64,000 bases of DNA, taken from positions 12,302 through 76,301 of the forward strand of contig CAVSOU010000005.1 in the NCBI GenBank assembly GCA_963729625.1, in the 5' to 3' direction. The notes under the pieces were generated by a model. That model was not told the DNA's origin. It ran no database searches and was given only the letters and a program-made list of their open reading frames with translations. This document shows, in pieces, positions 13,152 through 48,314 of this stretch (positions are counted from its first letter, which is position 1; every line of letters starts with the position of its first letter). The translations under genes and the position numbers were made by a program. The stretch is from an uncultured bacterium (GTDB taxonomy: Bacteria > Chloroflexota > UBA5177 > JANWHV01).

Positions 13152-16100
13152 ATGATTTCGAAAGAACAACGCGGCGTGGTAGTGGATCTTTGGAAAGAGA
13201 TTCTCAGTCTCACCGAGATTGATCTGGACCATGCATTCGCGGATCTAGGGGGTACCTCCCCTGGCGGCCAATCAGTTCGTTGCCCAGTTGGCGAGCCGCA
13301 CTGGGATCACCATTCCGGTCATCCGGGTCTTCGAATACCCAACGCTACGATCACTGCTGCACTACCTCAGCGAGGGTGCGACCGCAGCAACGGCCACACC
13401 CACACCACGTCGCCGTCACAAGACTTCTCCCGCGGGAGAGGTTCGCACGGATCACGACATCGCGATCGTCGGCATGGCCTGTCGGTTTCCCGGCGCGCAG
13501 AACCTCACCGAATTCTGGCAAAACCTTCTCGAAGGCCGCGACACCATCCGCGCTCTGTCGGACCAGGAACTCAGTCCCGAAGTGCCCCAGGAAGTGCGCA
13601 ACGACCCGCGCTACGTGCGCGCCGCCGGACTGATCGACCAACCGTATGCGATGGATGCCGCCTTCTTCGACATCAAGCCGATGGAGGCGCGGCTGACCGA
13701 CCCGCAGCAGCGCGTGCTGCTTGAGACAAGCTGGGACGCGCTCGAAAACGCCGGGCACGGGCCAGGCAGCTACGCCGGTCGCACCGCCGTCTTCGCAGGT
13801 ACCGAAGACAATACCTATTACAAGACTGAAATCAGCCCCTTTCCAGAAGCCGAAGCACGCGCCGGCCGTTTTTCGGTTATGACCGGCAACGAGAAGGACT
13901 TCTCGGCGATGCGCGTTGCGCACAAGCTCGACCTTCGCGGTCCAGCGGTGAGCGTCAACACGGCGTGTTCGACTTCGCTCGTAGCGGTCGTCATGGCCTG
14001 CAAGAGCCTGCGCAGCGGCGAGTGCGACCTTGCCCTGGCCGGAGGGGCCGCTGTCCACTTTCCAACCCCCGAGGGTTACTACTTCCAGGAAGGCGGGGTG
14101 TTCAGTTCCGACGGCCACTGCCGACCGTTTGACCAGGACGCACAGGGAACTGTCTTCACCGACGGCGTGGGCGTTGTCGTGCTCAAGCGCGTCGAGGACG
14201 CAATTCGCGACCGCAACACGATCTTTGCGGTGATTCGTGGCGGAGCCGTCAATAGCGATGGCGCCAACAGGGCCTCGTTTTCGGCCCCGAGTGTGAGCGG
14301 GCAGGCCAGTTGCATCGCTGAGGCCCTGCGTGATGCAGGCGTCGATCCGGCGACGATCGGCTACGTGGAAGCACACGGCACGGCAACGCCGGTGGGCGAC
14401 CCCATCGAGCTCGAAGGGTTACGGCAAGCCTTTGGCAAGCAGTCCGGGCGACGGCAGTACTGCGGGCTGGGTTCGGTCAAGAGCAATATCGGTCACACCA
14501 CGACGGCAGCTGGCGTCGCCGGCTTGATCAAAGCCGCCCTGGCATTGAAGAACGGCGTGATTCCGCCCTCGCTGCACTACCGACGCCCCAATCCGGCGCT
14601 CGATATCGAGAATTCGCCGTTTTACGTTGTCGATCGCAAAACCGATTGGCCTCCCGGGCCAGCGCCGCGCCGCGCCGGCGTCAGTTCCTTTGGTATCGGT
14701 GGAACCAACTCGCACGTCGTGCTTCAGGAGCCGCCGGCGATGTCGCCAGCACCCAGCCCGGCCATCGATCGGCCGTTTGAGATCCTGCCGGTTTCCGCGC
14801 GCACCGCCACGCAGCGTGACGCGCTGCTACAGTCGCTCTCGAGCCGAGATCCAACTCCTTGCGCGGGATCTGGCCTACACATTGCAGCATGGTCGCTCAC
14901 GTTTCCCGCGCCGGGGTGCGGCGATCCGCCTGCCGCGATGGCCCGGCGTTGACACGCAAATTAAGGCGACCCAGGCCGCACTGGACGAACCCAGCCTCGT
15001 TCTTCTGTTCCCTGGCCAAGGATCGCAATACATCAAGATGGGACACAGCCTGTATGGCGAGTTTCCCGAATTCCGTCAGACATTCGACCCATGCTGCGAC
15101 TGCTGAGTCAGGAGACTTGGTTTTGACTTCAAGGCCTTTATTTTCGACGAGGCGAACAAGGAAACGCTCGAAAACACGCGCTATACGCAGCCGGCGCTGT
15201 TCGCGATCGAAATTTCGATCGGCCGCATGCTGCTCGACTGGGGCTTGCGGCCGCAATTGATGGTTGGCCACAGCATCGGCGAATTCGCCGCGGCGCACCT
15301 GGCCGGCGTCTTCTGCGCTGGAGGACGGGATCAAGATGATCGCGGCGCGCGGCAGACTGATGGCCGATTGCCGCAAGGACGCATGCTTTCGGCGCGAGGC
15401 CCCCAGGACACCATGCTCGCCGCGGCCGGCGAGACGGTAGACGTTGCGTCGGTAAACGGTCCGGTCCACAGCGTGCTTGCCGGTGCCGACGAGCTGATCG
15501 CGCGGGTGCAAGAGCGCCTGGAGTCCGCGGGCATCTCGTGTCGGCCGCTGCATACCTCGCATGCGTTTCACTCGGCGATGATGACGCCGGTCATCGAGCC
15601 TTTCCTCGAAATTGTGCGCAGCGTGGAACTGCACGCACCGGACCGGACCATCGTGTCCACGGTTACCGGCGAGGTGCTCACGGCAGCCAACGCCACGGAT
15701 CCGATGTACTGGGCCAATCACCTGCGGTCGACCGTGAACTTCAGCGGCGCCGTGTTCAAGGCCCTGGACCTGGGCGGTAACATCTTCCTGGAATGCGGCC
15801 CGCGCACAACCCTAACGACGCTCGCCGTACAGCACTTTGCCAAGTCCCAGAACGCATCGGCGTCGCACGTTGCCATTTCCATGCTCGGCGACAATCCCGA
15901 GATGCAGACGGAACTGGGCGGCATTGGCAGTGCCTTGGCACGACTGTGGTGTGCCGGCGTGGTGCTGCAGTGGGACAGAATCTGGTCGCCGGGCCGCAAG
16001 GTTCCGCTGGTTACCGGCTACCCTTTCAATCGCAAGAACTTCCTATTCTCGGAAGGCAGGCAGCCGGAGCTGCGCTCTGCCCCAATACCGCATAACGCCC

Positions 16101-17218
16101 CTGCTCATGCACCGAGCCTGCAACGGATGGCCACCGCGCCAGCTGCCACCGGAACGGCGGAGGCAGCCCTGTCTGCCGCGCCTGTCATGGAACAGCGCGC
16201 GCTATTGCTTGCGCAGCTTGAGGCGCTGTTTAGCGGGTACGCTGGCGTTTCGGTATCCGCCAGCCAGGCGACCTTCGTTGAGCTGGGATTCGACTCACTG
16301 GTGTTGGTGCAGATCGGCGTGGAGATCAGCAAGACTTTCGGTGTTTCCATCGCGTTGCGCGACCTGATGGAACGCCTGAATACGCTACCGCTACTCGCAG
16401 GCCACCTCCTTGAAACGTCTTCGCCCGACAGGCTGCCGCGGGAGCTGCGCGCCCCTTCCGCCCCGATTGCTCCTGCTTACCAGCCGTCTCCCGCGCCACA
16501 TTCGCCGGCCTACGGTGCTGCGCCGGTGCCCATTACTGCCGAGCCCGTGCCCGGCACCGCCACCCAGGTTCGCGAGCTACTCCTTGCCGGCCTGGAAAGG
16601 CTTTTTGCCGCGCACTCCGGACTTGATATCCAGGCCAGTCCGTCAACATTTCTGGAGCTCGGACTCGATTCCCTGGTCTTGGTGCAGATTGGCGTGGAGA
16701 TCAGCAAGACTTTCGGTGTTTCCATTGCCTTGCGTGACTTGATGGCGCGTCTCAACAGCCTGCCGGCCCTGGCGGACCACATCCTCTCCTCTGCGCCACC
16801 TGACCGACTGCCACGCGTGGCCCGGCCGATGCCGATATCCGCAATGGCGCCGCCCTCTCCTGTTCCTGCAATGCCTGCATCCATTGCCGCGGCACCGACC
16901 CTTAGCTCGCAGGCGGTGGCTGCGGCACTGGCGGCGGCGCCCGCCGATGCTTTGCAGGTCATGCAGCAGCAACTTCGGGCCATGCAGGCTTCCATTGCCG
17001 AGCAGCTGACGCAGCTTGAAAAGATGACTCCCCTGTTGCAGGACGCCGCCCGAGCAGCCCGGAAGCCCGATGCGCCTGCCCCGTCAGCGCCCGCGCTGAT
17101 TCGTGCACGGCATGCACAGCCTCCACAGGAGGGAGCCTTCAGGGCGGCAGACAACGCGGGTGACAAGTGGGTCGCCTATGACGTGAATCGTCGCCGCTAC
17201 GAACTGATCACACGGTAG
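13152..17218 (+). pseudogene. type I polyketide synthase module: carrier(T0)-KS-AT(malonyl type)-ACP-ACP plus a Pro/Ala-rich C-terminal tail; frame disrupted as sequenced (near 13260, 14845, 15100 and 15310-15365)
   Basis: T0: DLGGTS...FEYPTLRSLLHYL. KS: DIAIVGMACRFPGA, VNTACSTSLVAV, EAHGTATPVGDPIE, GSVKSNIGHTTTAAG. AT: LLFPGQGSQY, GHSIGEFAAAHLAG, HTSHAFHSAMM (HAFH = malonyl type). Two ACPs: ELGFDSLVLVQ and ELGLDSLVLVQ. No KR, DH or ER motif seen. Confidence 0.85.
16270..16750 (+). repeat. tandem duplication of the ACP-coding unit (about 100 nt cores at approx 16275-16375 and 16650-16750, roughly 90 percent identical)
   Basis: Both copies encode (F)DSLVLVQIGVEISKTFGVSIALRDLM(E/A)RLN(T/S)LP. 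The nucleotide strings ggtgcagat(c/t)ggcgtggagatcagcaagactttcggtgtttccat are almost identical. Confidence 0.9.
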
Positions 17219-17228
17219 CGCAACCATC

Positions 17229-20200
17229 GTGCCAGATGAGTCCCGTGCGAATGCGGCCGAAGGTATGGATTTAGCGGCGAAACACTTCGGCGCAGAGATC
17301 CGTGTCGCATCCTCAGCCGCGCAGCGAGAGATATTCAGTGCATCCTGCTGCAGCCCCGATGCCTCGCTCGCCTACAACCAGTCCATCTCGCTGTTCTTCA
17401 GCGATCGGCCGGATCCGGATGCCCTGTATTCAGCGCTGCTGAATCTGCTGCATCGCCATGAAGCGTTGCGGGGCCACTTCAGCACCGACGGCATGTCATT
17501 CATCATCCGCGAACGCATAGCGTTCGAGTTGCCGCTGATCGAGCTGGCGGGCGAAACGGCGCTGGAGCGCAAGGCCAGCTACGACCGAGCCGTGCAGGAT
17601 GAGCTGGGACATGTATTCAACCTGACAGAAGGTCCGCTGTTTCGCGCCCTTCTCTTCAGTCGCGCCCCCCAGGGATGGGTTCTGCTCTTCAACTGCCATC
17701 ATGCCGTGGTCGACGGCTGGTCGTTGAACATCATCCTGCGCGAGCTGCCGGCGCTGTACAGCGACCTTGTGAGCGATCGTAGCGTTGCCAGCCTCCCTTC
17801 GCCGGACTCCTTCGCGGCACATCTGGCCTATGCCGTAGCGCAGGAACGCAAGCTTGGCCCGGCCGCATACCGCTATTGGCGGCAGACCTTTGCGGATGGG
17901 GTTCCGGTACTGGATTTGCCACTGGATCGAATTCGGCCCAACACACGCACCTACCAGTCGAGGCGGGAAGACTACAAAGTTGAGCGCTCGGTTTACGAGA
18001 ACCTCAAGCGCGCCGGTGCCAAGGGGGGAACCACTCAATTCGGCACCTTGATGGCCGTATACGCGCTGTATCTGGCGCGGATCTCCGGTCAGCAGGACTT
18101 TGTCATCGGGGTACCTGCGTTCGGACAGGTCACCGCCGGCAAGGGAAATCTCCTGGGACACGACGCGCGGCTTATCCCTGTTCGCTGCGTGATCGAGGAA
18201 CAGGACAACTTCACGGATTTTGCGGCGCGGTTGCGGCGGCGCTTTCTGGAGGCCTACGACCATCAGTGGGTGAGCATACCTGGCCTGATCCGAGAACTCG
18301 GCGTGGATGTAGATCGTGCCCGCGCGCCCCTGGTATCGGCGATCTTCGGCTTCGACCCCGGTATGGAGACGCCATTTCGGTTTGGCGATCTGACCGCCAG
18401 GCACCATTACAACGAGCGGCTTGGCGAGACCTTTGAGATTCAGCTCAACGCCGTCGTGGAAGATGGTGAGTTGATTCTGGAGTGGAGTTATAACGCCGCG
18501 CTGTTCGACCGTGAGCAAATGCATGCGCGCCTCATGCAGTTTGAACATCTCATGCGCGCCATCGCTGAGCAGCCCGATTGCAAGGTGCTCAGTCTGCCGC
18601 TGCTGCCTGGACCTCAAGTCCGGGAAATGGAGATGCTGCTCAATCAGACCGCCTTTCCTTTCGAACGGGAGTTGTGTGTCGACCAATTGGTTGAGCGCAG
18701 CGTCGACGCGCATCCGCAGGCCATTGCTGTGGAGTTCGGGGACCAGCGGCTCAGTTACCGGCAGCTGTGGGACAGATCAGGCCAGGTCGCCAATGCGCTG
18801 GCCTCCGCAGGTGCGGGTGCCCGTTCGCTGGTTGGCGTGATGCTGGAGCGATCCGCGGATCTAGTAGCCGTTCTTCTGGGCGTGTGGCGCGCTGGCGCGG
18901 CCTTTGTTCCGCTGGATCCGGCCTATCCCGCGGATCGCCTGGACTACATGGTCGAGCATTCCGGAATGCGCGTGCTTCTCACCGAACGTGCGCTGGAACG
19001 CCCCGAGGATGCCCAGCGGCTTAAGTGCATCTACGCCAGTGAGATTGCGCCTGAGACCCCGTCGACCTTCCCGTGGCGCGCCGGACGCAACTCGGAAGAT
19101 CGCGCCTACGTAATCTACACCTCAGGATCCACGGGGAAGCCGAAGGGTGTACAGGTACCGCATCGCTCGCTCAACAACTTCCTGACTTCCATGCGTACTC
19201 GGGAGCCTGGATTTGCGCCCGCAGGACGCCTGTTGGCGGTTACAACACTCTCGTTCGATATTGCGGAGCTTGAGCTGTGGCTGCCGCTGGTGTCTGGGGG
19301 TACGACAGTCATCGCTGACCGCGCCACTGCCTTTGACGGCGCGGCTCTGATTCGATTGCTCAGTTCGGCGCGAATCACCGTACTGCAAGCCACGCCCGCA
19401 ACCTGGCGTCTGCTCCTCTATTCAGGCTGGGCAGGCGATCGTGATCTAACCGCACTGTGCGGGGGCGAAGCGCTTCCGCGCGACCTTGCTGACGCGTTGC
19501 TTGAGCGCGTAGGCATACTTTGGAACGTCTACGGACCTACGGAAACAACCGTGTGGTCCACCATTGATCGCGTCGGACCTGGGGCCATCGCCGTTGGGAA
19601 GCCCATTGGCAACACGCAGACGTACATTCTCAACGGCAACAATGAGTGGGTGCCGCGGGGAAGCGTCGGTGAACTGTGGATCGGCGGGGACGGCGTTACC
19701 GCAGGCTACCTCGGGCGCGAGGATTTGACGCGTGAGCGCTTCCTGCCCAATGTGTTTACCGGCCACGGCCTGATGTACCGAACTGGCGATTTGGTGCGGT
19801 TGCGTCTTGACGGCCGGTTGGAATACATCGGCCGAAATGACTTCCAGGTGAAGGTCCGTGGTTACCGGATCGAGCTCGGCGAGGTCCAACACACCCTCGC
19901 GCGCCTACCAAAGATCAGACAGTGCATAGTCGTGGTAAAGGAACGTGAGCCTGGCGACAGCCATCTTGTCGCCTACTACACGCTGCACAGCGGCCGACAG
20001 ACTGACGCCACAGAGCTGAAGGATGAACTGCGCCAGAGCCTGCCGGACTACATGATCCCTGGCTGGTTCGTAGAGCTTGAGAGCCTTCCCCTTACGGATA
20101 ATGGCAAGATCAACGTCAAGGCTTTACCGGATCCGTTCGCATCGGCCCCAGATAACTCAGCCGAATCTGACAAAGGGCTTCACCTCGTCGAGGACATTCT

Positions 20201-20702
20201 TAGGGGAACCCCCACAATCACCGAATGTGCGCTACTAGCCAGCTCTCCAAACGAGCCTGATCGTCGGCCAGTGGCCTTCCTCGTGCGGCACGGACCCCAT
20301 CAGCCGACAGTCATAGCTGTTCGCAAAATGCTGGTCGGCAAAGTTCCCGAGGCATTGATTCCAGATACCGTAATCTCGCTGGCGGAACTTCCACTTAGCA
20401 AGTCACGGCAGGTGGATCGCTCTCGCCTGGGTCGGCTTATCCCGAGCCAAGGCATCGAACCCACTACGGACACGGAAAGACTGCTCATGTCGACGTGGCG
20501 GACGCTTCTAAACATCAAGGCAGTCCATCGGGACGACAGGTTTTTTGACCTGGGCGGTGACTCCTTGCTGGCTGTCCAACTAGTTCAAAGAATTTTGGAG
20601 ATCACAGGTTTCGGTCTGGAGCCTCGCGACATCGCCACCGAGAGTCTGTGGAAGTTGGCGCAGAACATTTTGCCTACCCGTGCGGTCGGGGAAGGACAAT
20701 GA
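17229..20702 (+). CDS. non-ribosomal peptide synthetase module C-A-(second AMP-binding_C-like subdomain)-T; A-domain pocket residues resemble the glycine code
   Basis: 1157-aa intact ORF. C domain HHAVVDGWS. A domain LSYRQLWDRSGQVA, YVIYTSGSTGKPKGV, FDIAELELW, NVYGPTETTVW, GELWIGGDGVTAGYLGR, YRTGDLVRL, VKVRGYRIELGEV, PLTDNGKINVKAL. T domain FFDLGGDSLLAVQLV. Confidence 0.9.
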   Translation: MPDESRANAAEGMDLAAKHFGAEIRVASSAAQREIFSASCCSPDASLAYNQSISLFFSDRPDPDALYSALLNLLHRHEALRGHFSTDGMSFIIRERIAFELPLIELAGETALERKASYDRAVQDELGHVFNLTEGPLFRALLFSRAPQGWVLLFNCHHAVVDGWSLNIILRELPALYSDLVSDRSVASLPSPDSFAAHLAYAVAQERKLGPAAYRYWRQTFADGVPVLDLPLDRIRPNTRTYQSRREDYKVERSVYENLKRAGAKGGTTQFGTLMAVYALYLARISGQQDFVIGVPAFGQVTAGKGNLLGHDARLIPVRCVIEEQDNFTDFAARLRRRFLEAYDHQWVSIPGLIRELGVDVDRARAPLVSAIFGFDPGMETPFRFGDLTARHHYNERLGETFEIQLNAVVEDGELILEWSYNAALFDREQMHARLMQFEHLMRAIAEQPDCKVLSLPLLPGPQVREMEMLLNQTAFPFERELCVDQLVERSVDAHPQAIAVEFGDQRLSYRQLWDRSGQVANALASAGAGARSLVGVMLERSADLVAVLLGVWRAGAAFVPLDPAYPADRLDYMVEHSGMRVLLTERALERPEDAQRLKCIYASEIAPETPSTFPWRAGRNSEDRAYVIYTSGSTGKPKGVQVPHRSLNNFLTSMRTREPGFAPAGRLLAVTTLSFDIAELELWLPLVSGGTTVIADRATAFDGAALIRLLSSARITVLQATPATWRLLLYSGWAGDRDLTALCGGEALPRDLADALLERVGILWNVYGPTETTVWSTIDRVGPGAIAVGKPIGNTQTYILNGNNEWVPRGSVGELWIGGDGVTAGYLGREDLTRERFLPNVFTGHGLMYRTGDLVRLRLDGRLEYIGRNDFQVKVRGYRIELGEVQHTLARLPKIRQCIVVVKEREPGDSHLVAYYTLHSGRQTDATELKDELRQSLPDYMIPGWFVELESLPLTDNGKINVKALPDPFASAPDNSAESDKGLHLVEDILRGTPTITECALLASSPNEPDRRPVAFLVRHGPHQPTVIAVRKMLVGKVPEALIPDTVISLAELPLSKSRQVDRSRLGRLIPSQGIEPTTDTERLLMSTWRTLLNIKAVHRDDRFFDLGGDSLLAVQLVQRILEITGFGLEPRDIATESLWKLAQNILPTRAVGEGQ

Positions 20703-21478
20703 CCCCTTTCTTCTTTGGTGCTCGCGCAAATCCCCTATACGGCGTCTATCACGCCCCCAGAGCTTCCGTCGCCAAGAACTCTGCTGTACTTCTATGCGCC
20801 CCGGTTGGCATGGATTACATGTGCTGTCATCGCAGCCTTGTGTCGCTCGCATCGTCACTATCGGCTCTCGGCCATCATGTTTTGCGATTCGACTATCAGG
20901 GCACCGGAAATTCCGCTGGCACGATTTCTTCTGGACAATTCCTGCGCTGGATGCGCGACATAGACAGTGCCATCCTGGAATTGTTGGACCTGTCCGGCCC
21001 GGCGCGTATATCGGCTGTTGGCCTGGGTCTCGGCGCGCTTTTGGCAACTACCGCCTTGGCGACAGGTACTGCCTCCGTCGATCATCTCGTGTTGTGGAAT
21101 CCCGCGGTGTCTGGCGCAGCGTACCTGGCCGAGATTTCGGCACAAGACAGGGAGTTCTTTGGCCGGTCGAGGGATTCTCGCGCTCATCACGACGACCTGA
21201 TTGGCTTCCCGTTTCCCTCCGACCTGCGTCACAGCCTAGAACTGCTGGACTTGCGCCGAAACCTCCTTCCGCAACCCCCGACTGCAATCTCACTGGTCGC
21301 GTCGGAGAGAACTTCGGACTATCTGGAATTGGAGGCCGCGCTTTTTGCCAGATCGCCGCCTTCAACCATCGAGTTTGCTGCAGATCCAGCAGCTGCCGCC
21401 GCCGCAGAAGGGTTGAGCATTGAGAGCCTCGCAGATGCGGCTTTCGCCGCCGTGGTTTCCGTGGTGGACAGACAATGA
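20699..21478 (+). CDS. alpha/beta-hydrolase fold protein (candidate exosortase-A-associated hydrolase 2 type)
   Basis: MTPFFFGARANPLYGVYHAP...AVLLCAPVGMDY...HHVLRFDYQGTGNSAG...ISAVGLGLGALLA...LVLWNP. The start ATG overlaps the NRPS stop (ATGA). Confidence 0.7.
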   Translation: MTPFFFGARANPLYGVYHAPRASVAKNSAVLLCAPVGMDYMCCHRSLVSLASSLSALGHHVLRFDYQGTGNSAGTISSGQFLRWMRDIDSAILELLDLSGPARISAVGLGLGALLATTALATGTASVDHLVLWNPAVSGAAYLAEISAQDREFFGRSRDSRAHHDDLIGFPFPSDLRHSLELLDLRRNLLPQPPTAISLVASERTSDYLELEAALFARSPPSTIEFAADPAAAAAAEGLSIESLADAAFAAVVSVVDRQ

Positions 21479-22326
21479 GCGAAGTGGTCATTCGCTTCGG
21501 CAGAAGTCTTCATCTTTCTGGAATTCTCACGGAACCAGAAGGGGCCGATCAATCACTGCCGACCGTGGTTATTGTCAGTTGCGGGCGCACGCACCACGTG
21601 GGTCCGTACCGCCTGTATGTGAACCTGTCGCGTGCGCTTGCCGAGCGGGGGATACGAACGCTGCGTTTTGACGTGGGGAACACTGGAGACAGCCAGTGCG
21701 CATTGCCAGCCGAGCCGGATTCAGGCGGCCTCGGATACGACATCCAGGACGCCTTGGACCACTTGAGTCGAGGTGCACCTGAAGCCCGGTACATTCTTTT
21801 CGGTCTACTTTCGGCCGCGGATCTGGCCTTTGCCGCTGCCACGCGCGACAAGCGCGTCATTGGCGCGATCCTGGTGGACCCGAGCGGATACAGGACTTTC
21901 GGATACCACCTGCGTCGCAGCCTGCAGTGGGCGGTCGCGGCATCTTTCTTACGCCCAATCTTAACTCGGAAACCGAAGTCGACCTGGCAGCGCACCCACA
22001 TTGGCAGCCTGGATTCACAAAGGCCGGTACCGCACGAGCGCGACGCGACACAACGACAGATTCAAGAACTCATTAAACGCGGCGTTCGCCTCCTATATGT
22101 GTATGCCGGCCAGGGCCCTGAGGCAACGGTAAATCACGCCAGCCAGTTCTGGCGGATGTATCCGCAATTGCCGCGCGTTGGCGCCATCACTGTTTCCTGT
22201 TTTCCACGAGCTGACAACGGTTTCTCTAATAGAGAGGATAGAACCCAATTGAGTTTGCTGTGCGAACACTGGGTGCTGGTGACATTCGATAGTTATCGCG
22301 CTCATGTAATTCGCCCATCTGCCTAG
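21475..22326 (+). CDS. second, unrelated alpha/beta-hydrolase fold protein (candidate exosortase-A-associated hydrolase 1 type)
   Basis: 283-aa intact ORF: LSGILTEPEG...PTVVIVSCGRTHHVGPYRLYVNLSRALAERGIRTLRFDVGNTGDS...YILFGLLSAADLAF...AILVDPSGY. ATGA overlap with the preceding gene. Confidence 0.7.
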   Translation: MSEVVIRFGRSLHLSGILTEPEGADQSLPTVVIVSCGRTHHVGPYRLYVNLSRALAERGIRTLRFDVGNTGDSQCALPAEPDSGGLGYDIQDALDHLSRGAPEARYILFGLLSAADLAFAAATRDKRVIGAILVDPSGYRTFGYHLRRSLQWAVAASFLRPILTRKPKSTWQRTHIGSLDSQRPVPHERDATQRQIQELIKRGVRLLYVYAGQGPEATVNHASQFWRMYPQLPRVGAITVSCFPRADNGFSNREDRTQLSLLCEHWVLVTFDSYRAHVIRPSA

Positions 22327-22392
22327 ATGCTCGAATAGATTTCTTGCCTTGCGCTTAGCGTCTTTAAGCCAAATGGTGTATTTAGCCAAATC

Positions 22393-23378
22393 ATGAATTC
22401 AGGTTTTCGGCCATCCCGCCTATCAGATCTGCTGCAGATCAAGTTGCTTGGCATCAACGCGTTCAATGCGAGCGGAAACTCGCCGTTTATCGGCGATGAT
22501 GCGCTGCAATGGAAATATTGGCAGCATCGAGCTGATTTCGAGGCGCCCAGGAGTTTTGTAATTGAGCACCGGGGCCGCGTGGTCGCACATGCCGGCGTAT
22601 GGCCAATAACTCTCAACGGCGAGCGCGGCGCACACATCATCGACTGGATGGCGGCGATAGATGCCCCGGCGCCGGCGTCTCTTTGCATCAGGCCATACAG
22701 AGCCGTTTTGATTTTCTGTATTCCATCGGCGGCGCTCAAGAGGCTCTTGATATTTTGCCGGCGCTTGGCTTTTCCGCCGTCGGCACCGCCTATACATGGG
22801 CCCGTCCATTGCGTCCGCTCCGGCAAATGTTCCACCACCAACGGCGCAATTGGCGACTTGCACCCAGATATCTTCGCAATCTCTGGCTTGCGAATATTCC
22901 TCCCAGAGCGGCTGTCACAAACTGGTCGACATCGCTTGCGACTGAATACGCGACCCCTCAACGGGAAGCTGGCTTCTTTGCTTACCTTGGTGTTTGCAGT
23001 GAAGCCAAGGTTCTTACCTTTAGGATTCTAAACAAGGGTCGTGACGAAGGCTGCATCACCTTGGCCACAGCGTCACTTCAAGCAAGGATTGCCGGAATTT
23101 GGCTTAGGGACCCATCGGTTCAAAATTGGAGCGTAGCTCTGGCTCTGGCAGAGACAATGGCAGTCGAGCACACGAACGCCTGCGAGATACTTTTTCGAGG
23201 TTCGTGCGAGAACAGTGTACTGGCGGCAAAGTCAGCGGGGATGCTTCTGGTCCGGAAAGAAGAAGTTGCCGTTCGCCGAAGCAACGGCTCTGTGCATCCA
23301 GTTCCAATTAGTGATCAGCTGTGGGACAACGACGCGTTCTTCCTGTCAGCAGGAAGGCGGCCGGAATTTGCCACTTAA
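22393..23378 (+). pseudogene. GNAT/FemAB-like acyltransferase-fold protein, one frameshift near 22665
   Basis: ORFs 22393-23031 and 22599-23378 join as ...FVIEHRGRVVAHAGVWPITLNGERGAHIIDWMAAIDAPGAGVSLHQAIQSRFDFLYSIGGAQEALDILPALGF... The family call is weak and rests on length, pattern and position beside a NodB deacetylase. Confidence 0.45.
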
Positions 23379-23448: not shown

Positions 23449-24273
23449 TAAGCCGCAGTCAGAGTCTTACCCATAAGCAGCTCGGCGCCAAACTGGTGTG
23501 GGTCACAATGCCATTCTGCGATTCCGATTCGTCGAATCTCGTATCGATCGTGTCATTGGTATTTGTGCCTCCGTGGCAGGACGCACAACACACAAAGCCG
23601 GCCTCGCGAACCAGCTGTCGGGAGACGGCATTGATGTTTCTTCGCCCCCCAAACGGATACGCAAACAGATCTATCGGCTTACCCACGACTCTCTCAAGAA
23701 CCTCTCGCGAGGACTTAAGCTCCGCCTGAATGAGCTCTGGGGATGCCACGCCCATATCGAGATGTGAAGCTGTGTGACAGCCGATTTCAAAGCCCTGCCG
23801 GGACAGTTCCTGCACTTGATTCCAAGTCATCCAACTCTGCGGCTTCAGTAGCCCTCGATCCCAAGGAGGAACAACTGCCCCCCCAACGAAACCCGTCGTA
23901 AGAAAAAAGGTAGCGGGCGGACCGTGCTGCGAAGAATTGGAGCAGCCACCTCGAAATTATCCAGGTAGCCGTCATCAAACGTAATTGAAAGCGTACCCCC
24001 CATGTCCTGGCCGTCTCGTAGTCCTCTCACCTGCTCCGAGAAAGGCAGAACGCGGAAGTGCTTACGAAAAAACAGGCAGAACGCATCGAACTTTTCAGAC
24101 GAACACGTCAGACCATCTTCCGGAATGGAATCGTTGACTCGGTGGAAAGCCGTAACGGTCACGAGCGACCCGAAGCCACGCTCATACAGGCCGGTGACCG
24201 AAGCCACCTTTCCCACTGCCGTCTTTATGCTTTTGTTGAACTTCAACATCTCTGAGCAATGCCCGGGAGACAA
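23449..24273 (-). pseudogene. NodB-type polysaccharide deacetylase, frameshifted (near 23830-23900 and possibly near the 3' end)
   Basis: VTAFHRVND..., LSITFDDGYLDNFEVAAPIL, then in another frame WMTWNQVQELSRQGFEIGCHTASHLDMG...REVLERVVGKPIDLFAYPFG. Alternative 3' frame ...WHCDPHQFGAELLMGKTLTAA stops at 23449. Confidence 0.7.
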
Positions 24274-24341: not shown

Positions 24342-25420
24342 CTAATGCCTCGCAAATTTCATCATTTTAGGTCGGCGAGAACCGACGGCACGCAGGCAAT
24401 ACCCTACCGGCCGATGACGACAATGTCCATATGCGAGCTCTGGTGGTGCTTTGGCCCACCATTCACATGGTCTTCTATGAAAGGACTTGAGGCAAGAGAC
24501 AGTATATGTCCAGCGCCAATCGAGTCCAGCTTGTGATCCGTCCACGGAGGTTACTACCCACAATCGATAGGTGCCGTCCCTACTGCCTAGACCATTCAAC
24601 TTAAACGGGGGCTCGACGCCCAAGCACCCACCCACATTTACCGGTGCCCCAAAGTCTGTCCGTACAGCTCGGTGACCCCGGAATATGAAATGCCCGAAAT
24701 CGTTGTATCTTGTAATTAATGCAACGTTACCCGATACACCACACATTGGGTCCGTCCACAGCCCAAACCATGAACGCTGTCCTTCCAAACCGGACGGACG
24801 ACCACTTCCGACATAATCTTGCTGCCAGATACCAGGGCTCTTGAGGTCTTCGAACCATTGCCCACGCAGCCCCTTTTTTCGATTGCATATAGCGATACCA
24901 GCAGGGTACATGACGCTTTTGATGCGTGCACAGCTGCGCACTTAATGGTGTTGGGCCGAAGCCGATCTTTGCGGCGCCGCATTGCCTCTTTCCCGACGTG
25001 TAGCTTGCCTTGCGTGCGACCCTCCACGACTGAAATCCAATGACTAAATCCGCAGCGCGCTCCCGCACGGGCCAACTCAAGACATTTCGTTGCAAGCAGA
25101 GCATTCGACCTGAAGTCATCGCGCCAGATGCTGCGTGGCTAGCGCCTTTCCCACCCAGGCCACTTGGGGCCACCAATAGCTCCTCAGCCTGATCGAGATA
25201 TCGCTATCACCAGTGCCCTCAAACAGAGAACTGGCACGGGTAACGTCAGGAATCCCATCCTCCACAATGAGGCGCCATATTGCGAACACGCACGAGTCCG
25301 CATCGATGTGACGCGGGCCGCCGCGCGACCGCGAGAGGCGACTTGCGTGCCGCTATGAAATGACCAAATGTATATACTCCATGGTTCCCATCTGTAATGG
25401 AACTCTTTGAGTTTCGCCAT
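24342..25420 (-). pseudogene. FGE-sulfatase (SUMF1/EgtB/PvdO) domain protein, heavily frameshifted; boundaries approximate
   Basis: Scattered over three frames: VIGFQSWRVARKASYTSGKR (compare PV.GVSW.DA.AY..W.GKRLP), VMYPAGIAICN, DYVGSGRPSG...SWFGLWTDPMCGVSGNV (compare PVGS.P.G.S.FGL.DM.GNV), IFRGH, RDGTYRLWVV (compare GFRVV). Confidence 0.4.
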
Positions 25421-26574
25421 GCAAAGCTCTCCACGCCCCCGTCTCCTAGAAGTGCTTTACTCTTTCAATGTCGGTGGTTCCGAGCTTCTCGGCTTAGAGC
25501 TGGCCAGCCAGCTTCAAGAGAGCGGAATTGATGTTCTCTGCACGGCGCTGCAGGGCATTTCCGGCCCGCTTGCTCATAGGTGCATCGCTCGCGGCATCGA
25601 AATCGTTGACCTAGGACTACCAAAACACGGGTTGTTCACTCGCAATGGGCTTAGTTTAGATTTAATTCGGCGCCTGAGAGAGCTGGAATTGGATGCCATC
25701 CACCTGCAGCACTTCCTCGGCCTCAACAAGATGGGACTTGCAGCAAACATTGCCGGAATACCTCGAGTTGTTGTTACGGAGCATTCATTGCTCGACGTGA
25801 GCCAGTCATTCGCGGGGAAGCTTCGCATTCGCCTAAACTGGCGTTTGGCTGACACGATAACGACCATTCACCCGCAGATAACCGACTATCTAATATCCAA
25901 GCTAGGCGTGAAGTCCGAGCGGGTGATCACCGTGCCGGTCGGCATAGAAGTGCAACGGTGGCACCGTACAGACCGGGCAGAACGACGTTTGGACTTCGGT
26001 TATGGCGCCGAGGACTTTGTATTTGCGTTCGTCGGCCGATTCGCTGCTGTAAAGAATGTCCCCGGCCTCGTCGAGGCATTTCTGAATATCAGTCGCGTAC
26101 TCCGTTGCCGTCTCGTCTCGTGCTGGTTGGCGACGGCGCCGACATGCAACCTGTTTTAGAATTGCGGACCGTCATCCAGCAGGTTCACGCATACGATTTG
26201 CCGGTGAGCTTGACGATGCGCGTCCGGTGTTGGCTGCCGCAGATGCATTCGTGATGAATTCAATTCCGGAAGGCACGCCCCGCTCGTTATTGGAGGCCAT
26301 GGCCATGGGTCTGCCCTGCGTCTGCCCCGCGGTCGGCGGCATCCCTTCAATACTGGCGTCTCGCGGCTGGTTATTTCCGAGCCAAGATTCTGTAGCGTTA
26401 ATCGATGCCCTCTTGGCAGTTTCGCGAAATCCAGCCGAGTCGCGTCTAATCCGGGGAACGTGGCCGTGATTTCGTTGTAGATAACTCGACTCCCGGAGGA
26501 TTTGTGATCAATATCGTTCGCTGCTCTTCCCCGGTATCTCTAATGATTTTGCACAACGACGTGGGGATGTCTAA
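25419..26574 (+). pseudogene. GT4-family glycosyltransferase, 3 or more frameshifts
   Basis: PRLLEVLYSFNVGGSELLGLELASQL..., FVFAFVGRFAAVKNVPGLVEAF, RLVLVGDGADM, AADAFVMNSIPEGTPRSLLEAMAMGLPCVCPAVGGIPSIL (E-x7-E region) and C-terminal ICDQYRSLLF lie in different frames. Confidence 0.7.
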
Positions 26575-27674
26575 ATGGTATCGAGCGACCTAAAAACCTG
26601 CCTCCATATCATTAGCACTGGCGGCTTCTACGGCGCGGAGCGCGCCGTGATAGAGATTTCCGCGTACATGGCCGAGCACGGGTGGCGGCCACACATCGTG
26701 GCGCTTGAGGGTAGAGGCGCCTCGGTGCTCGTCGAGCGCGCGCACGCAATGGGTCTGTTGGCAGACTCGTTTGGCGCGGATCGCATTGGGCTTTTCGAAA
26801 TGCGTCGGCGACTCGCTGCCATCGCCGGACGCTATTCTGAGCGGGATCATTCATTCACACGGCTACAAACCGGACATTCTCTTAGCACTCTCGTCCTTCT
26901 CACGTCAGTGGGTCCGATTTTCCACTTGTCACACCTGGTATAGCGATACTTGGCGCATGGAACTTTGGGATACATCGACAAACGTGTGCTTCGAACGTTT
27001 GATTGTGTGGTGCCCGTCTCGGGTTTCTTGGAGCGGGAGTTGCTTGAGAGTGGCGTTTCTGCGGACCGAATTGTCCGCATTGATAATGGCATTGATGCTC
27101 CGCCCAGGAGCCCGGCCGATGGCATTGCCATACGTCAGGAGCTCGGACTGTCGGCGGACGATGCCCTAATTGTCCAGATTGGGCGGCTCGCCAAGTCTAA
27201 ACGAAATGATCTATTGATTGAGGCGCTCACCCATCTGCCCAATTTTCCACGCCTTCATATCGCGCTCGTAGGAGACGGGGAGCAACGTGGACTTCACAAA
27301 TGGTTCATCACGAACGTCTCGATGGTCGCGTGCACTTTATGGGTTATCCGCCGCATGCCAATAGGTTTTTGAGTGCTGCCGATATATTGGCGATCACGTC
27401 AGATCACGAAGGACTTCCGATTGTTCTACTCGAAGCTATGGCAGCCCATTGTCCGGTAGTTTCGACCGATGTTGGTGCGATCGGTGATGTGCTTAAGAAC
27501 GGGGAAAGCGCTTGGCTAGTACCGCCCAACAACGTTGAAAGCCTGGCGGCGTCACTTTCTGAGGCACTAGCAAGTCCCGCAGAGGCGATACGTCGCGCAA
27601 CGCGGGCTCGAGCAGTGTTCGAGCTCAAGAACTCACGAACGTCCATGGGTTCTCACGTATCTTTCTCTATATGA
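26575..27674 (+). pseudogene. GT4-family glycosyltransferase, several frameshifts
   Basis: LHIISTGGFYGAERAVIEI..., IIHSHGYKPDILL, VVPVSGFLERELLESGVSADRIVRIDNGID, LIVQIGRLAKSKRNDLLIEA...HIALVGDGEQR, VHFMGY...ADILAITSDHEGLPIVLLEAMAAHCPVVSTDVGAIGDVL. Four overlapping ORF fragments. Confidence 0.7.
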
Positions 27675-27789
27675 GCAGGCTTGGAATCTTCGCTATAAAG
27701 ATGCGGGGAAGCACTAACGGGCTCTCGCTTCGCGCGCCTTCGCGAACCAAACGTTCCTCCTGTCAATTCAATGTTGAATACACCAGTTT

Positions 27790-28745
27790 TCGCGATTGGT
27801 GGAGGGCGAGCCTTGCAGATCAATAAATTCTTATCGGTTTGCGGTCGTGAACAACCGATGGATCAATAACGGAGCAATCCGCCAACTAGAGCAGGTCAAT
27901 TGTAAACGCTCGATCTTGTTTCCCCGACTTCCTTGGGCCAAGACGGCCCAGAATTTCGAGGCGTTTCCACCTAGGAACATGAAGGCAGCCCCGTCGACTG
28001 CGCATCGCAATTGGCAGGGACACCAGGGCCCCAGCGCTGCGACTGACCTAGGATTCTCATGGCGAACGCCTTGATTGACCCTTAACCAACCCCTGACACC
28101 GGCCGATCTAGTCCCGATATGCCCAGCCTCGCCCAGATGCTGGCCCAGCACTCTGCCAGCATCGCCGACGATCGTCCCGTCAACACAGACGAGCAGCAGA
28201 CTGCCCGCTGTCGCTGCCACCTAGGCCATCGGCGCTGCACCGGCCCTGTCATGTCCTATCGCGCCAGCGATTCCGCAGACACATCCGTTGGTACTGCTAT
28301 GTATGCGATGGGCGCGGTCTCATCCGCGGGTGGAACAGGACGCTCCAGGACGGCTACGCGCCAACCAGGCAGATCGCTTAACACTGCGTAAATCACGCGG
28401 TTACCCTGATTACCGACCTATCGGCTGCGGGTAACCGCGGCGTGCAGCACGTGATGACCGATAACCGCGTCCCGCACCGTTCCAAGGCGTTCAAATGCCT
28501 CCTTCGCGGACCGCGACATCCGCGCCCTGCGAGCCGCCGTACACGCCCAATACCACGGCGATGCCGGGCGCTCTCCGGACCTACCTGATGAGTGGGCCAG
28601 TACCGCGGCCTACCGGCGCTCAGAGCGGCGGAGCCAGGCACAGAAGGCCTGGACCCGACACTGCAACCGCGACCGTCCGCACTCCACGCTAGCCCCAGCC
28701 ACCCGCCGTAAAATTCGGTCTGGATGGGAAAACCTACTAAACATC
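27790..28745 (+). mobile_element. decayed IS481-family transposase remnant (rve/DDE), boundaries approximate
   Basis: Frame-hopping matches to the IS481 core: ...GHR..G..., VQHVMTDN...RSKAFK, (T)RPYTPNT(NGKAERF)..TLL.EW read as EPPYTPNTTAMPGALRTYLMS, and C-terminal HCNRDRPHSTL. No intact ORF. Confidence 0.5.
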
Positions 28746-28749
28746 ACAA

Positions 28750-30311
28750 CTAGGTCACCTGCAACAGGGCGGGCGGCAGAGGCGCCACAGACGCAAAATT
28801 GCAGCCAATCCGCGTTGGCGGAGAAGCACCGCCCCATGCGCCCATGTCGCAAGCAGCGCCGCTGCTCACGCCGCCAACTCTCCCAGGACTGGAACTAGTT
28901 GCGCTACCTGCCGTACCTGCTACCAATGCGTAGCCAGCGGGATTAAGCGACGTGGCACTCAATGTGGGCTTCACGAAAGTTGGTTCGAGGGCCACTGAAT
29001 GCGTGTCAAACCCGAGTGCGCTCTGGGCTTGAGATAGCGTGTAGGAGCTAGACGGTGTGCCAATATTGCTGGTCGGCGCCAGGGTCAAGTACTTGCCGTT
29101 TGCCGCAACCACACCGTAGAGGTTGTAGTCCGATTGCAGGATGGAATTCGCCACCAACCCCAAGATACCCTGATACCCCAGCGACCCACTGCTTAGGTGA
29201 TATACATTGTTGTAGTTCGTGACCATCGCGCCGGGCGAGGTCACGTACCTGCGGCAGGATAGTAGATTCCTTGACCACCAGGACCGAAAACGAATGTGTT
29301 GTTGTAGAAGACGAGATTCTGCGACGAGAGCGTGTTCGACAAACTCCCATCCCATCCATTCGCGTTGGGGCAGAGCATGACGTTATTGTGGACGGTCAGC
29401 GTATCGCCCGCCATCTTGCCACCAGAAGCCCCGTGGACTGCGTTCTGCGGATACAAACCCGCTGACTCGATATAGTTATATCGCCAAGTGTGGTTTCCGT
29501 TCGGATAGTACTTGTCGAAGATCCCATTATTGCAATCGTAGATCGTATTGTATTCATATACATTCGAACGGCAATAATATGAAAAGATGCCCGCGACATC
29601 ATCCGGGTTCTGGCCATTAGTCGGTGGCTGAACGCCATGAAACCTGTTGTTGTGAATCCAGGCACCGGTGTAGCCCTGCATGAAGATAGCGGCCACGTTG
29701 TCATTGTCGGTGCCGCCGATGTCGTAGACCTCGCAGTTACGTACTTCAAGTCCCGTCGCGCCGCCTTCGACCCCCGCGCCACCACTCACCCCGCTTGGGC
29801 CAGCGAGATAGAACGCGAAGCCGTACTGATAGGCTCGGGTTATATATAGCCCATCGATAATGACGTTCCCCAAGTTAGGTGGACTTTTCGTATATTGCCC
29901 CTGCCCAATGATTCCACACTCGGTCGTTGGATACCCTCCTCCCGAAGGATTCGCAGCGGTCAAAATGGCGGCACGCGGAGTCGTAGATTGGATGAGTGTG
30001 GGGGAGGCCGATGTCCCGCCATTAACCGACAACGCAGGCTGATTAAATGAACCCGCTTGGCACAACGAATAAACGTTGTATGTGCCCGGAAGAATGCCTA
30101 CCGCCTTCCCGGCATATGTGCTCCACTTTGAGTTTATCGCCGTGATCGACCAGGGACTAGCAAGCGTTCCCGGGTTGGAATCCGAACCTGTAGGCGAAAT
30201 ATAGAAATCGTAGCTCGTAGACTGAGCAGAAGCTGTACGAATAAGTCCTGGTACTGCCGTGGCCAGAATGGCGCAACCGCCTTGTTTCAGCAGCGTTCGT
30301 CGTGTGAACAT
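28750..30311 (-). pseudogene. Tat-signal secreted right-handed beta-helix protein (pectate-lyase/polysaccharide-depolymerase-like), one frameshift near 29250-29355
   Basis: MFTRRTLLKQGGCAILATAVPGLIRTASAQS (twin-arginine signal), SPTGSDSNPGTLASPW, repeated ...NN.F...N.I.D.. turns (VRNCEVYDIGG, IHNNRFHG, YEYNTIYDCNNGIF, VHNNVML, FYNNTFVF). The C-terminal 200 aa are in another frame. Confidence 0.65.
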
Positions 30312-31005
30312 GCGTGTAATTCCTCGCTAGAGCAAGTGCCCGTGTCCGGCAAATTCGTCCCGGGCGGTGGGGCCTGTGATTGAAGACAGCGTACCCTATG
30401 GACCATGATTGTCACCCGATGGCAAGATTCAGCTCCATTGCGCCGTCGGGATGGTTCGTTCCTGGCGTCTCGTGGACGCCGAGGAGTGATTGCCTAATGT
30501 ACCGTCGGTACGAGTGGATTGGGAGTCGCCCCGGTCGGTCCCGAGCATCAGCCCGGGCGAGCTGGCGAGCGTGATTCACCACCAACTGTGCGCCACAATT
30601 ACGTCGCATACCAACGCCTGGAAAACGATAAGCGCGGCCCCACCAGGGCGCAAGCTGTCTCCCGATCACGACAGCGATTACCTTGTACGCGCTAAACACG
30701 GCGTGGAATGGCCGGATTGTGTTGCCGCGCATCGTCGACCGATAGCGAATGTCATAAGTGAAATTGGGACGCGTTTCTCGTCTGCCCGGCTACGAGAAGC
30801 CCCTATGGGCGATTCGCTCGGAGTTTACGGCATGTGGCGCTTCCGCCGGCCAACTGGACTCCTTGTCCTGGTTGCTTTTGGAGGGCCGCTAGCGCCGCGG
30901 TCGCTGCAGGCGATCCGGCGTCAATGCAGTCAGACGTCCCAACGCCCTCCGCTACGGTGTTCTTTGGAGGCTGGGCTCGTCTGGCTGGCCTTCGGCAGGA
31001 CCGGG

Positions 31006-32201: not shown

Positions 32202-32232
32202 AGTCGCCGCCGTGTCTGCGCCGACGGGCCCA

Positions 32233-33675: not shown

Positions 33676-34025
33676 AAAGGGGCCGCCTTATTCGAGCCTG
33701 TCTACCGCCAGACCCATAGTGCATCACACTGTTGTCGCAGGCAAGTCGACTGCGTGTCCTGCGTAATTTCAGCTGGAATCTCTGCGATGTCCGACATTGG
33801 TCGGAATACCTCGCTTTAGGTGTTTTACCTGATGTCGAAGATGCGTTCTCTATTTGGTCTCGATTTGTACGTGGGGCGGGCACGCGTACCGTGACCGTGG
33901 TTACCGCCGGTGGGTCGATGCATTATGACCAACCAACCTGAACCGGCCTGCGATTGCATTCGTTCCAGCTGCCCCAGAGCCATGCCTGTTCCAGCGCCCT
34001 ATTCTTGGGAATTGAGAAGTGGACG

Positions 34026-34196: not shown

Positions 34197-34250
34197 GGGG
34201 TGTAAGTGGATTTCTGCCGGGGCAATATAGCAACCGGAGGGCAGAGATTC

Positions 34251-36176: not shown

Positions 36177-36189
36177 CCGCGCTCCAGGC

Positions 36190-40727: not shown

Positions 40728-40740
40728 CGCGGCACCAACG

Positions 40741-41892: not shown

Positions 41893-41948
41893 TTTTCACC
41901 AATCCGGAAAGCATCTAGGGGGCACGGCCAAAACCTATGGCAGCCCAA

Positions 41949-48305: not shown

Positions 48306-48314
48306 GGGTCACCC

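Follow-up and report, generated by a model that had tools for sequence, protein, structure and literature searches.

Locus and gene content

The window analyzed here is a 64,000-nucleotide stretch of contig CAVSOU010000005.1 (positions 12,302 to 76,301, assembly GCA_963729625.1), from an uncultured bacterium of the Chloroflexota. It carries a run of genes for a type I polyketide synthase (PKS), a nonribosomal peptide synthetase (NRPS), two dissimilar alpha/beta-hydrolase fold proteins (hydA and hydB), and a tandem-GNAT acyltransferase (p328), followed by a convergent polysaccharide deacetylase gene and then by an exopolysaccharide (EPS) locus with markers of the exosortase A (XrtA) type. Every element that a first-pass annotation, made from the sequence without database searches, had listed between 13152 and 23378 was recovered in place, with matches far beyond chance (Table 1).

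Pfam, tblastn, and motif alignment agree on the T-KS-AT-T-T order (carrier, ketosynthase, acyltransferase, two further carriers) and on the lack of reductive domains that had been proposed for the PKS. The Pfam matches are to ketoacyl-synt (E 4e-74), Ketoacyl-synt_C, KAsynt_C_assoc, Acyl_transf_1 (beginning at profile position 81), and two PP-binding stretches. As sequenced, the gene is read in three frames. After restoration of the frame its motifs are complete, all three carrier domains keep their Ser in the motif alignment, and there is no space for KR, DH, or ER domains. T2 and T3 represent a tandem duplication (the 152-nt cores, 16259-16410 and 16634-16785, are 78% identical), and the relatives inspected have a single carrier domain in their place. 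Pks13-type synthases (ACP-KS-AT-ACP) share with this PKS a carrier ahead of the KS, the lack of reductive domains, and a single condensation. The Pks13-type model NF040607 scores 435 bits over T1-KS, far below its cut-off of 2100, and unlike Pks13 systems the window has no thioesterase (TE), no FadD32-like fatty acyl-AMP ligase (FAAL) nearby, an AT of the malonyl type, and a product that would go to an NRPS module.

The NRPS is a single condensation-adenylation-carrier (C-A-T) module in one intact open reading frame (ORF). Its A-domain code, DILQLGVVWK, is the classical glycine code, which bears out the glycine-like module called at first pass; the form DILQLGxxWK is present in the window and in all ten of the sister cassettes described below. 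With frames restored, the KS, AT, carrier, C-domain, and A-domain motifs of a hybrid type I PKS-NRPS are all present. Domain order, glycine code, and intact motifs support the earlier prediction of a (3-oxo)acyl-glycyl thioester, and a 3-oxoacyl-glycyl thioester is the predicted product of the line in the window. The NRPS, hydA, and hydB are chained, as had been seen, by ATGA stop/start overlaps at 20699 and 21475. The earlier report of no TE, no adenylating enzyme for a starter, and no phosphopantetheinyl transferase (PPTase) also stands: tblastn with reference sequences finds neither a PPTase nor a second adenylating enzyme in the window, neither a FAAL nor a TE was found there, and there is no space for a TE between the NRPS carrier and hydA.

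The last part of the PKS (about 16900-17218) reads LIRAxHAQPPxxGAFR...W..YD...RRYxxI, a tail that is conserved in all sister PKSs and matches no family. A possible role for it is docking of the NRPS.

Table 1. Coordinates of the features discussed, in the window and in related loci
Sequence	Feature	Coordinates	Strand	Remarks
Window	Type I PKS gene, T1-KS-AT(malonyl)-T2-T3, conserved C-terminal tail ~100 aa	13152..17218	+	Broken frame; Pfam, NCBIfam, tblastn
Window	PKS T1 carrier domain	13152-13377	+	tblastn with intact relatives L004, L001, L006
Window	PKS KS domain	13441..14730	+	Cys-His-His intact (TACSTS, EAHGTAT, NIGHT); Pfam, motif alignment, tblastn
Window	PKS AT domain	14951..15898	+	GHSIGEF and malonyl-type HAFH; holds a stop codon and out-of-frame stretches
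Window	PKS T2 carrier domain	16175-16435	+	GxDSL
Window	PKS T3 carrier domain	16580-16819	+	GxDSL
Window	NRPS gene, C-A-T	17229..20702	+	One intact ORF, 1157 aa; Condensation, AMP-binding, AMP-binding_C, PP-binding (Pfam)
Window	NRPS C domain	17376-18626	+	HHAVVDG
Window	NRPS A domain	18657-20138	+	Code DILQLGVVWK
Window	NRPS T domain	20496-20645	+	LGGDSL
Window	hydA	20699..21478	+	Alpha/beta fold, hydr2-like; start overlaps NRPS stop (ATGA)
Window	hydB	21475..22326	+	Alpha/beta fold, hydr1-like; ATGA overlap with hydA
Window	p328, tandem-GNAT acyltransferase gene, 328 codons	22393..23378	+	One frameshift at 22665, against the intact L002 orthologue
Window	CE4/NodB polysaccharide deacetylase gene	23451..24249	-	Convergent with p328; single bases missing at 23549 and 23928, against L002
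Window	PBP1A-family penicillin-binding protein gene (core gene)	10241-12348	+	Split over at least 3 frames
Window	EPS locus	25407..51252		Lower GC, XrtA-type markers, many fragmented; NCBIfam-type matches and GC
Window	stp2-like GT4 genes	25407-27674		EPS locus
Window	IS3-family transposase gene	34696-35451	+	Inside EPS locus; 188.5 bits, cut-off 160
Window	stp1	38140-39120		EPS locus
Window	O-ligase-like gene	39401-40727		EPS locus
Window	Wzx gene	43402-44877	-	EPS locus
Window	Outer-membrane protein gene	46085-47388	-	EPS locus
Window	Tyr kinase gene	47455-47961	-	EPS locus
Window	Chain-length determinant gene	48315-49565	-	EPS locus
Window	Citrate synthase, HemW, RdgB, RNase PH (core genes)	51.8-56.4 kb		Intact
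L004	Sister NRPS ORF	6552-10004		Altered carrier, ORF still intact
L006	Sister NRPS ORF	6552-10004		Altered carrier, ORF still intact
L097	Sister NRPS ORF	5030-8473		Altered carrier, ORF still intact
L009	Small ACP-like gene	11147-11398	-	
L010	Small ACP-like gene	11446-11718	-	
L011	Small ACP-like gene	9604-9846	+	
L098	Small ACP-like gene	10647-10904	-	

A portable cassette

Sister cassettes were found by contig look-ups and by a scan of one genome per GTDB species. A PKS (T-KS-AT-T), an NRPS (C-A-T), hydA, and hydB occur together in loci L001, L004/L018, L006, L016, L024, L027, L028, L083, L085, and L097; L013, L014, and L019 have part of the array. Host taxa are Acidobacteriaceae, Burkholderiales, Steroidobacteraceae, Rhodospirillales, and Gammaproteobacteria metagenome-assembled genomes. 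Clustering of all flanking ORFs leaves a PPTase as the only gene common to the sister cassettes; other neighbors are transporters, TonB/ExbBD, and regulators. In at least ten sister cassettes the surrounding 10 kb show no EPS locus, although L028 does have one isolated sugar transferase gene and galE. By the second of the refuting conditions that the first-pass annotation had set, the adjacency to an EPS locus in the window is therefore not a general property of the cassette. Adjacency is kept in L002.

Judged from these sequences, the cassette is a portable, TE-less, glycine-terminated PKS-NRPS operon, an undescribed recurrent family. Full-text literature searches found no description of the cassette or of its hydrolase pair, and the epsSMASH preprint makes no mention of NRPS or PKS.

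The hydA/hydB pair follows terminal carrier domains

A scan with hydA, again of one genome per GTDB species, finds relatives in 407 species genomes; 80 loci were fetched for context. In 80 of 82 cases hydB follows hydA directly, and a carrier domain ends no more than 400 nt upstream of hydA in 57 of the 76 cases with enough upstream sequence. NRPS/PKS loci of widely varied architecture, with no space for a TE, enclose 71 of the 82 hydA genes. The terminal A domains ahead of the pair (n = 47) have a glycine code in about 30 cases and an Asn-like code in 8. Two proteins, P0169 (1225 aa) and P0230 (1188 aa), join A, T, hydA, and hydB on one polypeptide, with the pair taking the TE position; L017 has an A-T-hydA fusion (8069-10783); and hydA is fused to hydB in Azospirillum brasilense Sp7 and in Mycetohabitans rhizoxinica HKI 454. 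Fusions of this kind indicate that the parts work together. In most relatives the line ends in the pair, whose genes show translational coupling to the terminal carrier.

Each member of the pair has a clear signature. The elbow of hydA reads G-x-R-x-G in 88 of 90 sequences, and there is no conserved His. Of 92 hydB sequences, 86 have G-x-C-x-G and 84 have the His of a "DH" motif; the fused proteins of Azospirillum and Mycetohabitans retain the Arg, Cys, and His. A hydB profile, searched exhaustively, returns 9,798, 5,907, and 1,879 clusters at E<=1e-3, E<=1e-10, and E<=1e-30, respectively, and the Cys motif GxCxG is present in 143 of the 149 best matches. In a low-confidence hydB structure model (pLDDT 57.6) the secondary structure puts this Cys in the turn between a strand and a helix. 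The family has no model in Pfam or NCBIfam, and PDB sequence searches with the pair, which bear also on a likeness to stand-alone Dieckmann cyclases and type II thioesterases, return generic S33 hydrolases only.

We propose that hydA and hydB are a carrier-domain off-loading unit, predicted from gene order and conserved residues, of TE-less NRPS/PKS lines. We infer that hydB would act through an acyl-S-Cys intermediate, which should favor transfer over hydrolysis, and that hydA would be a non-catalytic docking partner. Stand-alone Dieckmann cyclases are alpha/beta-fold release enzymes of assembly lines, and the pair shares with TE domains and with trans-acting release enzymes of this fold its position after the last carrier. 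Like Cys-containing TEs such as SulM (PMC11298585), hydB has a Cys at the nucleophile elbow, and it has a His. Unlike these enzymes, the unit consists of two proteins, one of them an obligatory dead paralogue bearing an elbow Arg, and the window's own copies have lost the catalytic residues.

Four loci, L080 (Hydrogenophaga intermedia S1), L087, L020, and L034, have two megasynthases, each with its own terminal hydA-hydB; the two are convergent in L080 and L087.

The first-pass annotation had likened the two hydrolases to hydr1_PEP and hydr2_PEP, the paired hydrolases of XrtA loci. Kinship of a distant sort is there, but membership is not. In the window hydA scores 79.4 bits against TIGR03101 (hydr2_PEP, cut-off 202.75), over profile positions 2-142 of 266 only, while hydB scores 69.9 bits against TIGR03100 (hydr1_PEP, cut-off 168.45) in a full-length match, 13-272 of 274. 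The relatives scanned reach 75-112 bits (hydA) and 37-87 bits (hydB), with these always the best-scoring models. Scores so far below the curated cut-offs exclude hydA and hydB from both families, an outcome that the first-pass annotation had itself named as refuting; the pair forms instead a group sister to that of XrtA loci, with the hydr2-like gene ahead of the hydr1-like one. Both pairs are adjacent, dissimilar alpha/beta-fold genes in the neighborhood of a carrier protein and an adenylating enzyme. Here they accompany a PKS-NRPS rather than a ligase with an ACP and a decarboxylase; the scores run from 37 to 112 bits against cut-offs of 168-203; and most members of the hydA/hydB family are found outside XrtA loci. 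No such hydrolases are present in the XrtA loci of Vibrio alfacsensis and Alteromonas mediterranea (found through the chain-length determinant), and tblastn of hydA and hydB against PLSDB plasmids finds no gene annotated as exosortase-associated. The hydrolase arm of XrtA loci had been credited to Haft et al. 2006 (PMC1569441). That paper makes no mention of hydrolases, ligase, ACP, or decarboxylase, and the description stems from the TIGRFAM/NCBIfam model descriptions.

Some members of the family stand in operon-like order with polysaccharide genes. Variovorax paradoxus VAI-C has two NRPS genes with a PPTase gene, hydA, and hydB, followed by co-directional genes for Wza and Wzc, for a priming sugar transferase and glycosyltransferases, and for a flippase. 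L017 has an electron transfer flavoprotein pair, an acyl-CoA dehydrogenase, A-T-hydA, and hydB ahead of an EPS priming transferase (scoring above cut-off for TIGR03025), a CE4 deacetylase, a GT2 glycosyltransferase, and an O-ligase-like gene. The Azospirillum and Mycetohabitans operon encodes an ACP, an acyl-CoA dehydrogenase, an amino acid:[ACP] ligase, DUF1839, and GH2, with the fused hydA-hydB last. For the neighborhood of that ligase, Aravind and colleagues predicted amino acid ligation to a cell-surface amino sugar (PMC2922099). Operons of such amino acid:[carrier protein] ligases (the system of Mocibob et al. 2010) resemble the present one in having an amino-acid-charged carrier and links to glycosidase and surface-polysaccharide genes. 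In them the donor is loaded by a ligase resembling an aminoacyl-tRNA synthetase (aaRS) rather than by an NRPS A domain, and the window has no such ligase. Taken together, the family's link to polysaccharide genes is suggestive: it recurs and is not general, or else does not show within 10 kb. PEP-CTERM-type proteins are encoded a few kb from the pair in L007/L008 (14049-14939, minus strand) and L078 (13826-14668, plus strand), but pattern matches near the pair are confined to these three loci, two of which are identical contig sequence, and are no more than expected by chance.

Loss of the active site in a p328-bearing clade

The pair in the window follows the last carrier in the family's gene order, yet lacks the Arg, Cys, and His that mark the family. 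Its hydA reads GLGLG, with Gly at the nucleophile position (Arg in 88 of 90 relatives); its hydB reads GLLSA, with Leu at the position of the elbow Cys, and ADN (His to Asn) where relatives read ADH. Such proteins cannot carry out release by the usual chemistry. Of the earlier suggestion that the hydrolases release the product or transfer it to the polymer or a protein, transfer onto the polymer is still plausible, while release by the window's own hydA and hydB is not.

The exceptions to the hydB Cys/His signature are found only in the window, L002, L004/L005/L006/L018, and L097, and these are exactly the cassettes that bear p328. The hydA Arg is lost only in the window and L002. In a neighbor-joining tree of the NRPS (built with no support values), the p328-bearing cassettes form one clade, a topology that implies that p328 was gained once and that hydB lost its active site once. 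The ratio dN/dS against L002 is 0.08-0.20 for p328, 0.22-0.29 for hydA, and 0.42-0.45 for hydB; between L004 and L006 the PKS gives 0.13 and the NRPS 0.17. Values well below 1 show that the genes of this clade are under purifying selection and do not drift freely. In L097 an amino acid:[ACP] ligase gene, scoring above cut-off, comes right after p328.

p328 and the paired deacetylase

An AlphaFold (AF2) model of the L002 orthologue of p328 is a tandem GNAT (pLDDT 93.1). Foldseek matches it to 2ozg, 2wpx, N-myristoyltransferases, Eis, and VipF (E 1e-13 to 1e-10), and the best matches include Eis-like proteins and the clavulanate tandem GNAT. By sequence, p328 has 69 relatives and weak Pfam Acetyltransf_9 matches only, with no PDB sequence match and no NCBIfam match at E<=0.1. 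The gene had been called GNAT/FemAB-like at first pass, and only the first half of that label survives. As a FemAB candidate (TIGR03019) p328 is rejected by NCBIfam, where it has no match, and by hhalign, which gives 0.1% probability against the FemAB protein of the V. alfacsensis XrtA locus. The NodB deacetylase that had been placed after it is present, as a CE4 family member.

More distant relatives of p328 (30-46% identity) are found in the EPS loci L009, L010, L011, and L098, where CE4 deacetylases are immediately beside them. FkbH-domain proteins (215-231 bits, cut-off 146.65) accompany them in three of these four EPS loci, and small ACP-like genes with the motif WDSxAQVTLL do so in all four. 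The adjacency of p328 to a deacetylase gene is seen in the window, L002, L009, and L010. FkbH enzymes charge an ACP with a glyceryl unit. On the simplest reading, the p328 family would move a carrier-bound acyl group to an amine exposed by the deacetylase, and the module of FkbH, ACP, p328, and deacetylase probably carries out ACP-dependent N-acylation, perhaps N-glyceroylation, of amino sugars. The p328-CE4 pair at the border of the EPS locus, in both the window and L002, is the best argument that the product of the assembly line here ends on the polysaccharide. In L098 a PEP-CTERM-type protein is encoded (5195-6001, minus strand) a few kb from the p328 homologue.

A known system has a similar logic. 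Veith et al. (PMC7468200) describe a deacetylase and a GNAT-type enzyme that build an N-glycyl/N-seryl sugar anchoring T9SS (type IX secretion system) cargo, and speculate that PEP-CTERM systems use the same route. In the VimA/VimE (Wbp/Vim) pathway, with which the FemAB-deacetylase pair of XrtA loci is compared, a CE4 enzyme frees a sugar amine, a GNAT-fold enzyme attaches glycine or serine, and the glycyl sugar so made is the anchor for a sortase-like system. Glycine is the amino acid activated in the window as well. Unlike in VimA/VimE and the XrtA FemAB system, the glycine amine in the window would be capped by the 3-oxoacyl group, and the donor is presumably a carrier thioester instead of an aminoacyl-tRNA. 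With its amine capped, the product would be a lipid-like decoration and not a nucleophile.

Proposed mechanism and alternatives

Our preferred reading, to which we give a probability of roughly one half, is that the window holds a portable, TE-less PKS-NRPS beside an XrtA-type EPS locus, and that p328 off-loads its chain, likely onto an EPS amino sugar. The KS would add a single malonyl unit, left unreduced, to an acyl starter carried by T1, and the C domain would join the 3-oxoacyl chain to glycine, loaded by the A domain on the last carrier, to give a 3-oxoacyl-glycyl thioester. In the family at large, hydB would take the chain as an acyl-S-enzyme and hand it to an acceptor, while hydA docks to the carrier domain. 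In the lineage of the window, p328 would instead off-load the chain by N-acylation from the carrier-bound thioester, and the acceptor would most likely be an amino sugar in the EPS of the neighboring locus, made available by the CE4 enzyme that accompanies p328.

Several observations weigh against this reading. Every step past the thioester, including the final product and the acceptor, is deduced from gene context. Three of the four p328-bearing lineages (L004/L006 and L097) have no deacetylase or EPS genes nearby; these same sisters have lost the Ser of the NRPS carrier (GGDP, GGDQ), and the C domain of L004/L006 has no catalytic His (HATVVDG), so that the logic of the clade may differ from what we propose. 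Clustering of the flanking ORFs shows no FAAL conserved with the cassette, nor any transporter or regulator. EPS markers from a tblastn reference set lie within 10 kb of hydA in only 7 (strict) to 21 (any marker) of 80 loci. The hydB model, built from four sequences, is of low confidence. Finally, the PKS has at least six indels, not all of them in homopolymers, and the NRPS has none, which leaves room for real decay of the PKS.

A second account sees an ordinary secondary-metabolite cluster, whose product is a free small molecule, for instance an N-(3-oxoacyl)glycine lipoamino acid or, through Dieckmann cyclization, a 3-acyl-tetramic acid, with the EPS locus next to it only because an island happened to insert there. 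Tetramates have a 3-oxoacyl-aminoacyl thioester as their textbook precursor. The cassette is a self-contained unit, often with its own PPTase, its neighbors elsewhere are transporters, TonB/ExbBD, and regulators, and its GC content (0.61-0.64) departs from that of the EPS locus (about 0.55). We nevertheless consider this account unlikely. The pairing of p328 with a deacetylase recurs in EPS loci alongside dedicated ACP donors, hydA and hydB are repeatedly co-oriented with polysaccharide genes, and the Cys-His enzyme that might cyclize or hydrolyze the chain is inactive in just this lineage.

The locus might also be a decaying remnant that makes no product, its PKS a pseudogene and its hydrolases dead. 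The PKS has, beside its indels, an in-frame stop codon (15104-15106, inside a short out-of-frame stretch), p328 and the deacetylase gene are frameshifted, the catalytic residues of hydA and hydB are lost, and an IS3 transposase gene sits within the EPS locus. Frameshifts in the PKS fall near 13259 and 14860; within the AT there are compensating indel pairs at about 15095-15115 and about 15314-15378, and a second out-of-frame stretch of some 20 codons lies just past GHSIGEF. Against L002, the lesions in p328 (22665) and in the deacetylase gene (23549 and 23928) each amount to one deleted base, in sequence whose identity to the intact orthologues otherwise reaches 99%. The core gene for PBP1A and most of the EPS genes are fragmented as well, which makes assembly error the more likely cause; the split PBP1A gene agrees better with errors throughout the window than with decay confined to the island. 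The frameshifts in p328 and the deacetylase gene are probably assembly or sequencing errors; the lesions in the PKS may be real decay. With the sister cassettes intact, and with dN/dS against L002 well below 1 for hydA, hydB, and p328, a remnant is quite improbable.

Least probable is a reading along the lines of the first-pass proposal, that the cassette is a variant which replaces the ligase/ACP/decarboxylase arm of an XrtA locus, its hydrolases releasing the product or transferring it to the polymer or a PEP-CTERM protein: TIGR03101 and TIGR03100 are indeed the best or only specific families for the pair, the cassette does abut an EPS locus with an XrtA marker above cut-off, the adjacency is kept in L002, and PEP-CTERM ORFs do occur near hydA and hydB in L007/L008 and L078, but the pair scores under half of the curated cut-offs and in the window lacks the Arg, Cys, and His of its family, two canonical XrtA loci have no such hydrolases, the cassette recurs as a self-contained unit in at least ten loci with no EPS genes within 10 kb, xrtA, the decarboxylase, and a PEP-CTERM protein were not found in the window, and the NRPS A domain, the only AMP-binding protein there, scores 206.8 bits against TIGR03098, the ligase of that arm, where the cut-off is 592.35.

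The p328 reading allows a bolder extension, which we put forward tentatively, with the odds against it. The hydA/hydB proteins, and by homology hydr2 and hydr1 of XrtA loci, may be not hydrolases but carrier-to-glycan transacylases, in which a Cys enzyme with an Arg-bearing dead paralogue would shift (lipo)peptidyl-glycyl or aminoacyl groups, whether made by an NRPS/PKS or loaded by a ligase, from a phosphopantetheine thioester to polysaccharide at the cell surface; in the lineage of the window a carrier-dependent tandem GNAT would have taken over. If so, the EPS of the window would be N-acylated with a polyketide-glycine lipid, and products of such assembly lines would be covalent decorations or anchors of EPS in place of free metabolites.

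Many mined NRPS/PKS clusters have no TE and an unexplained release step. For these hydA/hydB is a candidate release unit, recognizable by clear sequence motifs and most often preceded by a glycine module at the end of the line, in 5,907 clusters at E<=1e-10 and in at least 407 species. For the hydrolase 1 and hydrolase 2 genes of exosortase A systems, labeled so far by context only, it offers a concrete and testable idea of function. It also connects three systems that have been treated separately, TE-less assembly lines, operons of aaRS-like amino acid:[carrier protein] ligases, and EPS loci, through a proposed common logic, the delivery of carrier-bound acyl or aminoacyl groups to surface glycans. 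Culturable carriers of the genes include V. paradoxus VAI-C, A. brasilense Sp7, and M. rhizoxinica HKI 454. The modules of FkbH, ACP, p328, and deacetylase represent a second unannotated family, likely to N-acylate amino sugars.

The adjoining EPS locus and the mosaic sequence

GC content is 0.64-0.70 in both flanks of the window and 0.54-0.62 between about 20 and 52 kb. For the XrtA style that had been ascribed to the EPS locus, the marker matches are mixed. At 317 bits, the model of the XrtA chain-length determinant, TIGR03007, exceeds its cut-off of 278.85; TIGR03018, TIGR03087, TIGR03097, TIGR03016, and TIGR03088 are matched by frameshifted fragments only, each below cut-off. The window ORFs scanned include no match to xrtA or to the PLP decarboxylase (TIGR03099), and a pattern search of the window finds no PEP-CTERM C-terminus. 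The set of ligase (TIGR03098), ACP, and decarboxylase that defines the XrtA hydrolase arm is not found beside the pair. Rfam has zero matches in the window, and promoter-like and terminator-like sites show no enrichment.

Nucleotide identity to the metagenome relative L002 changes abruptly along 20270-24255. It is 98-100% over 20270-20870 (where the NRPS ends and hydA starts), falls to 65-90% over 20870-23457 (most of hydA, all of hydB, and p328), and returns to 94.5-99% over the deacetylase gene. Within the divergent stretch, dS to L002 is 0.35 for hydB and 1.2-1.5 for p328. On these identities the off-loading module resembles a divergent allele that recombination has exchanged between genomes nearly identical elsewhere.

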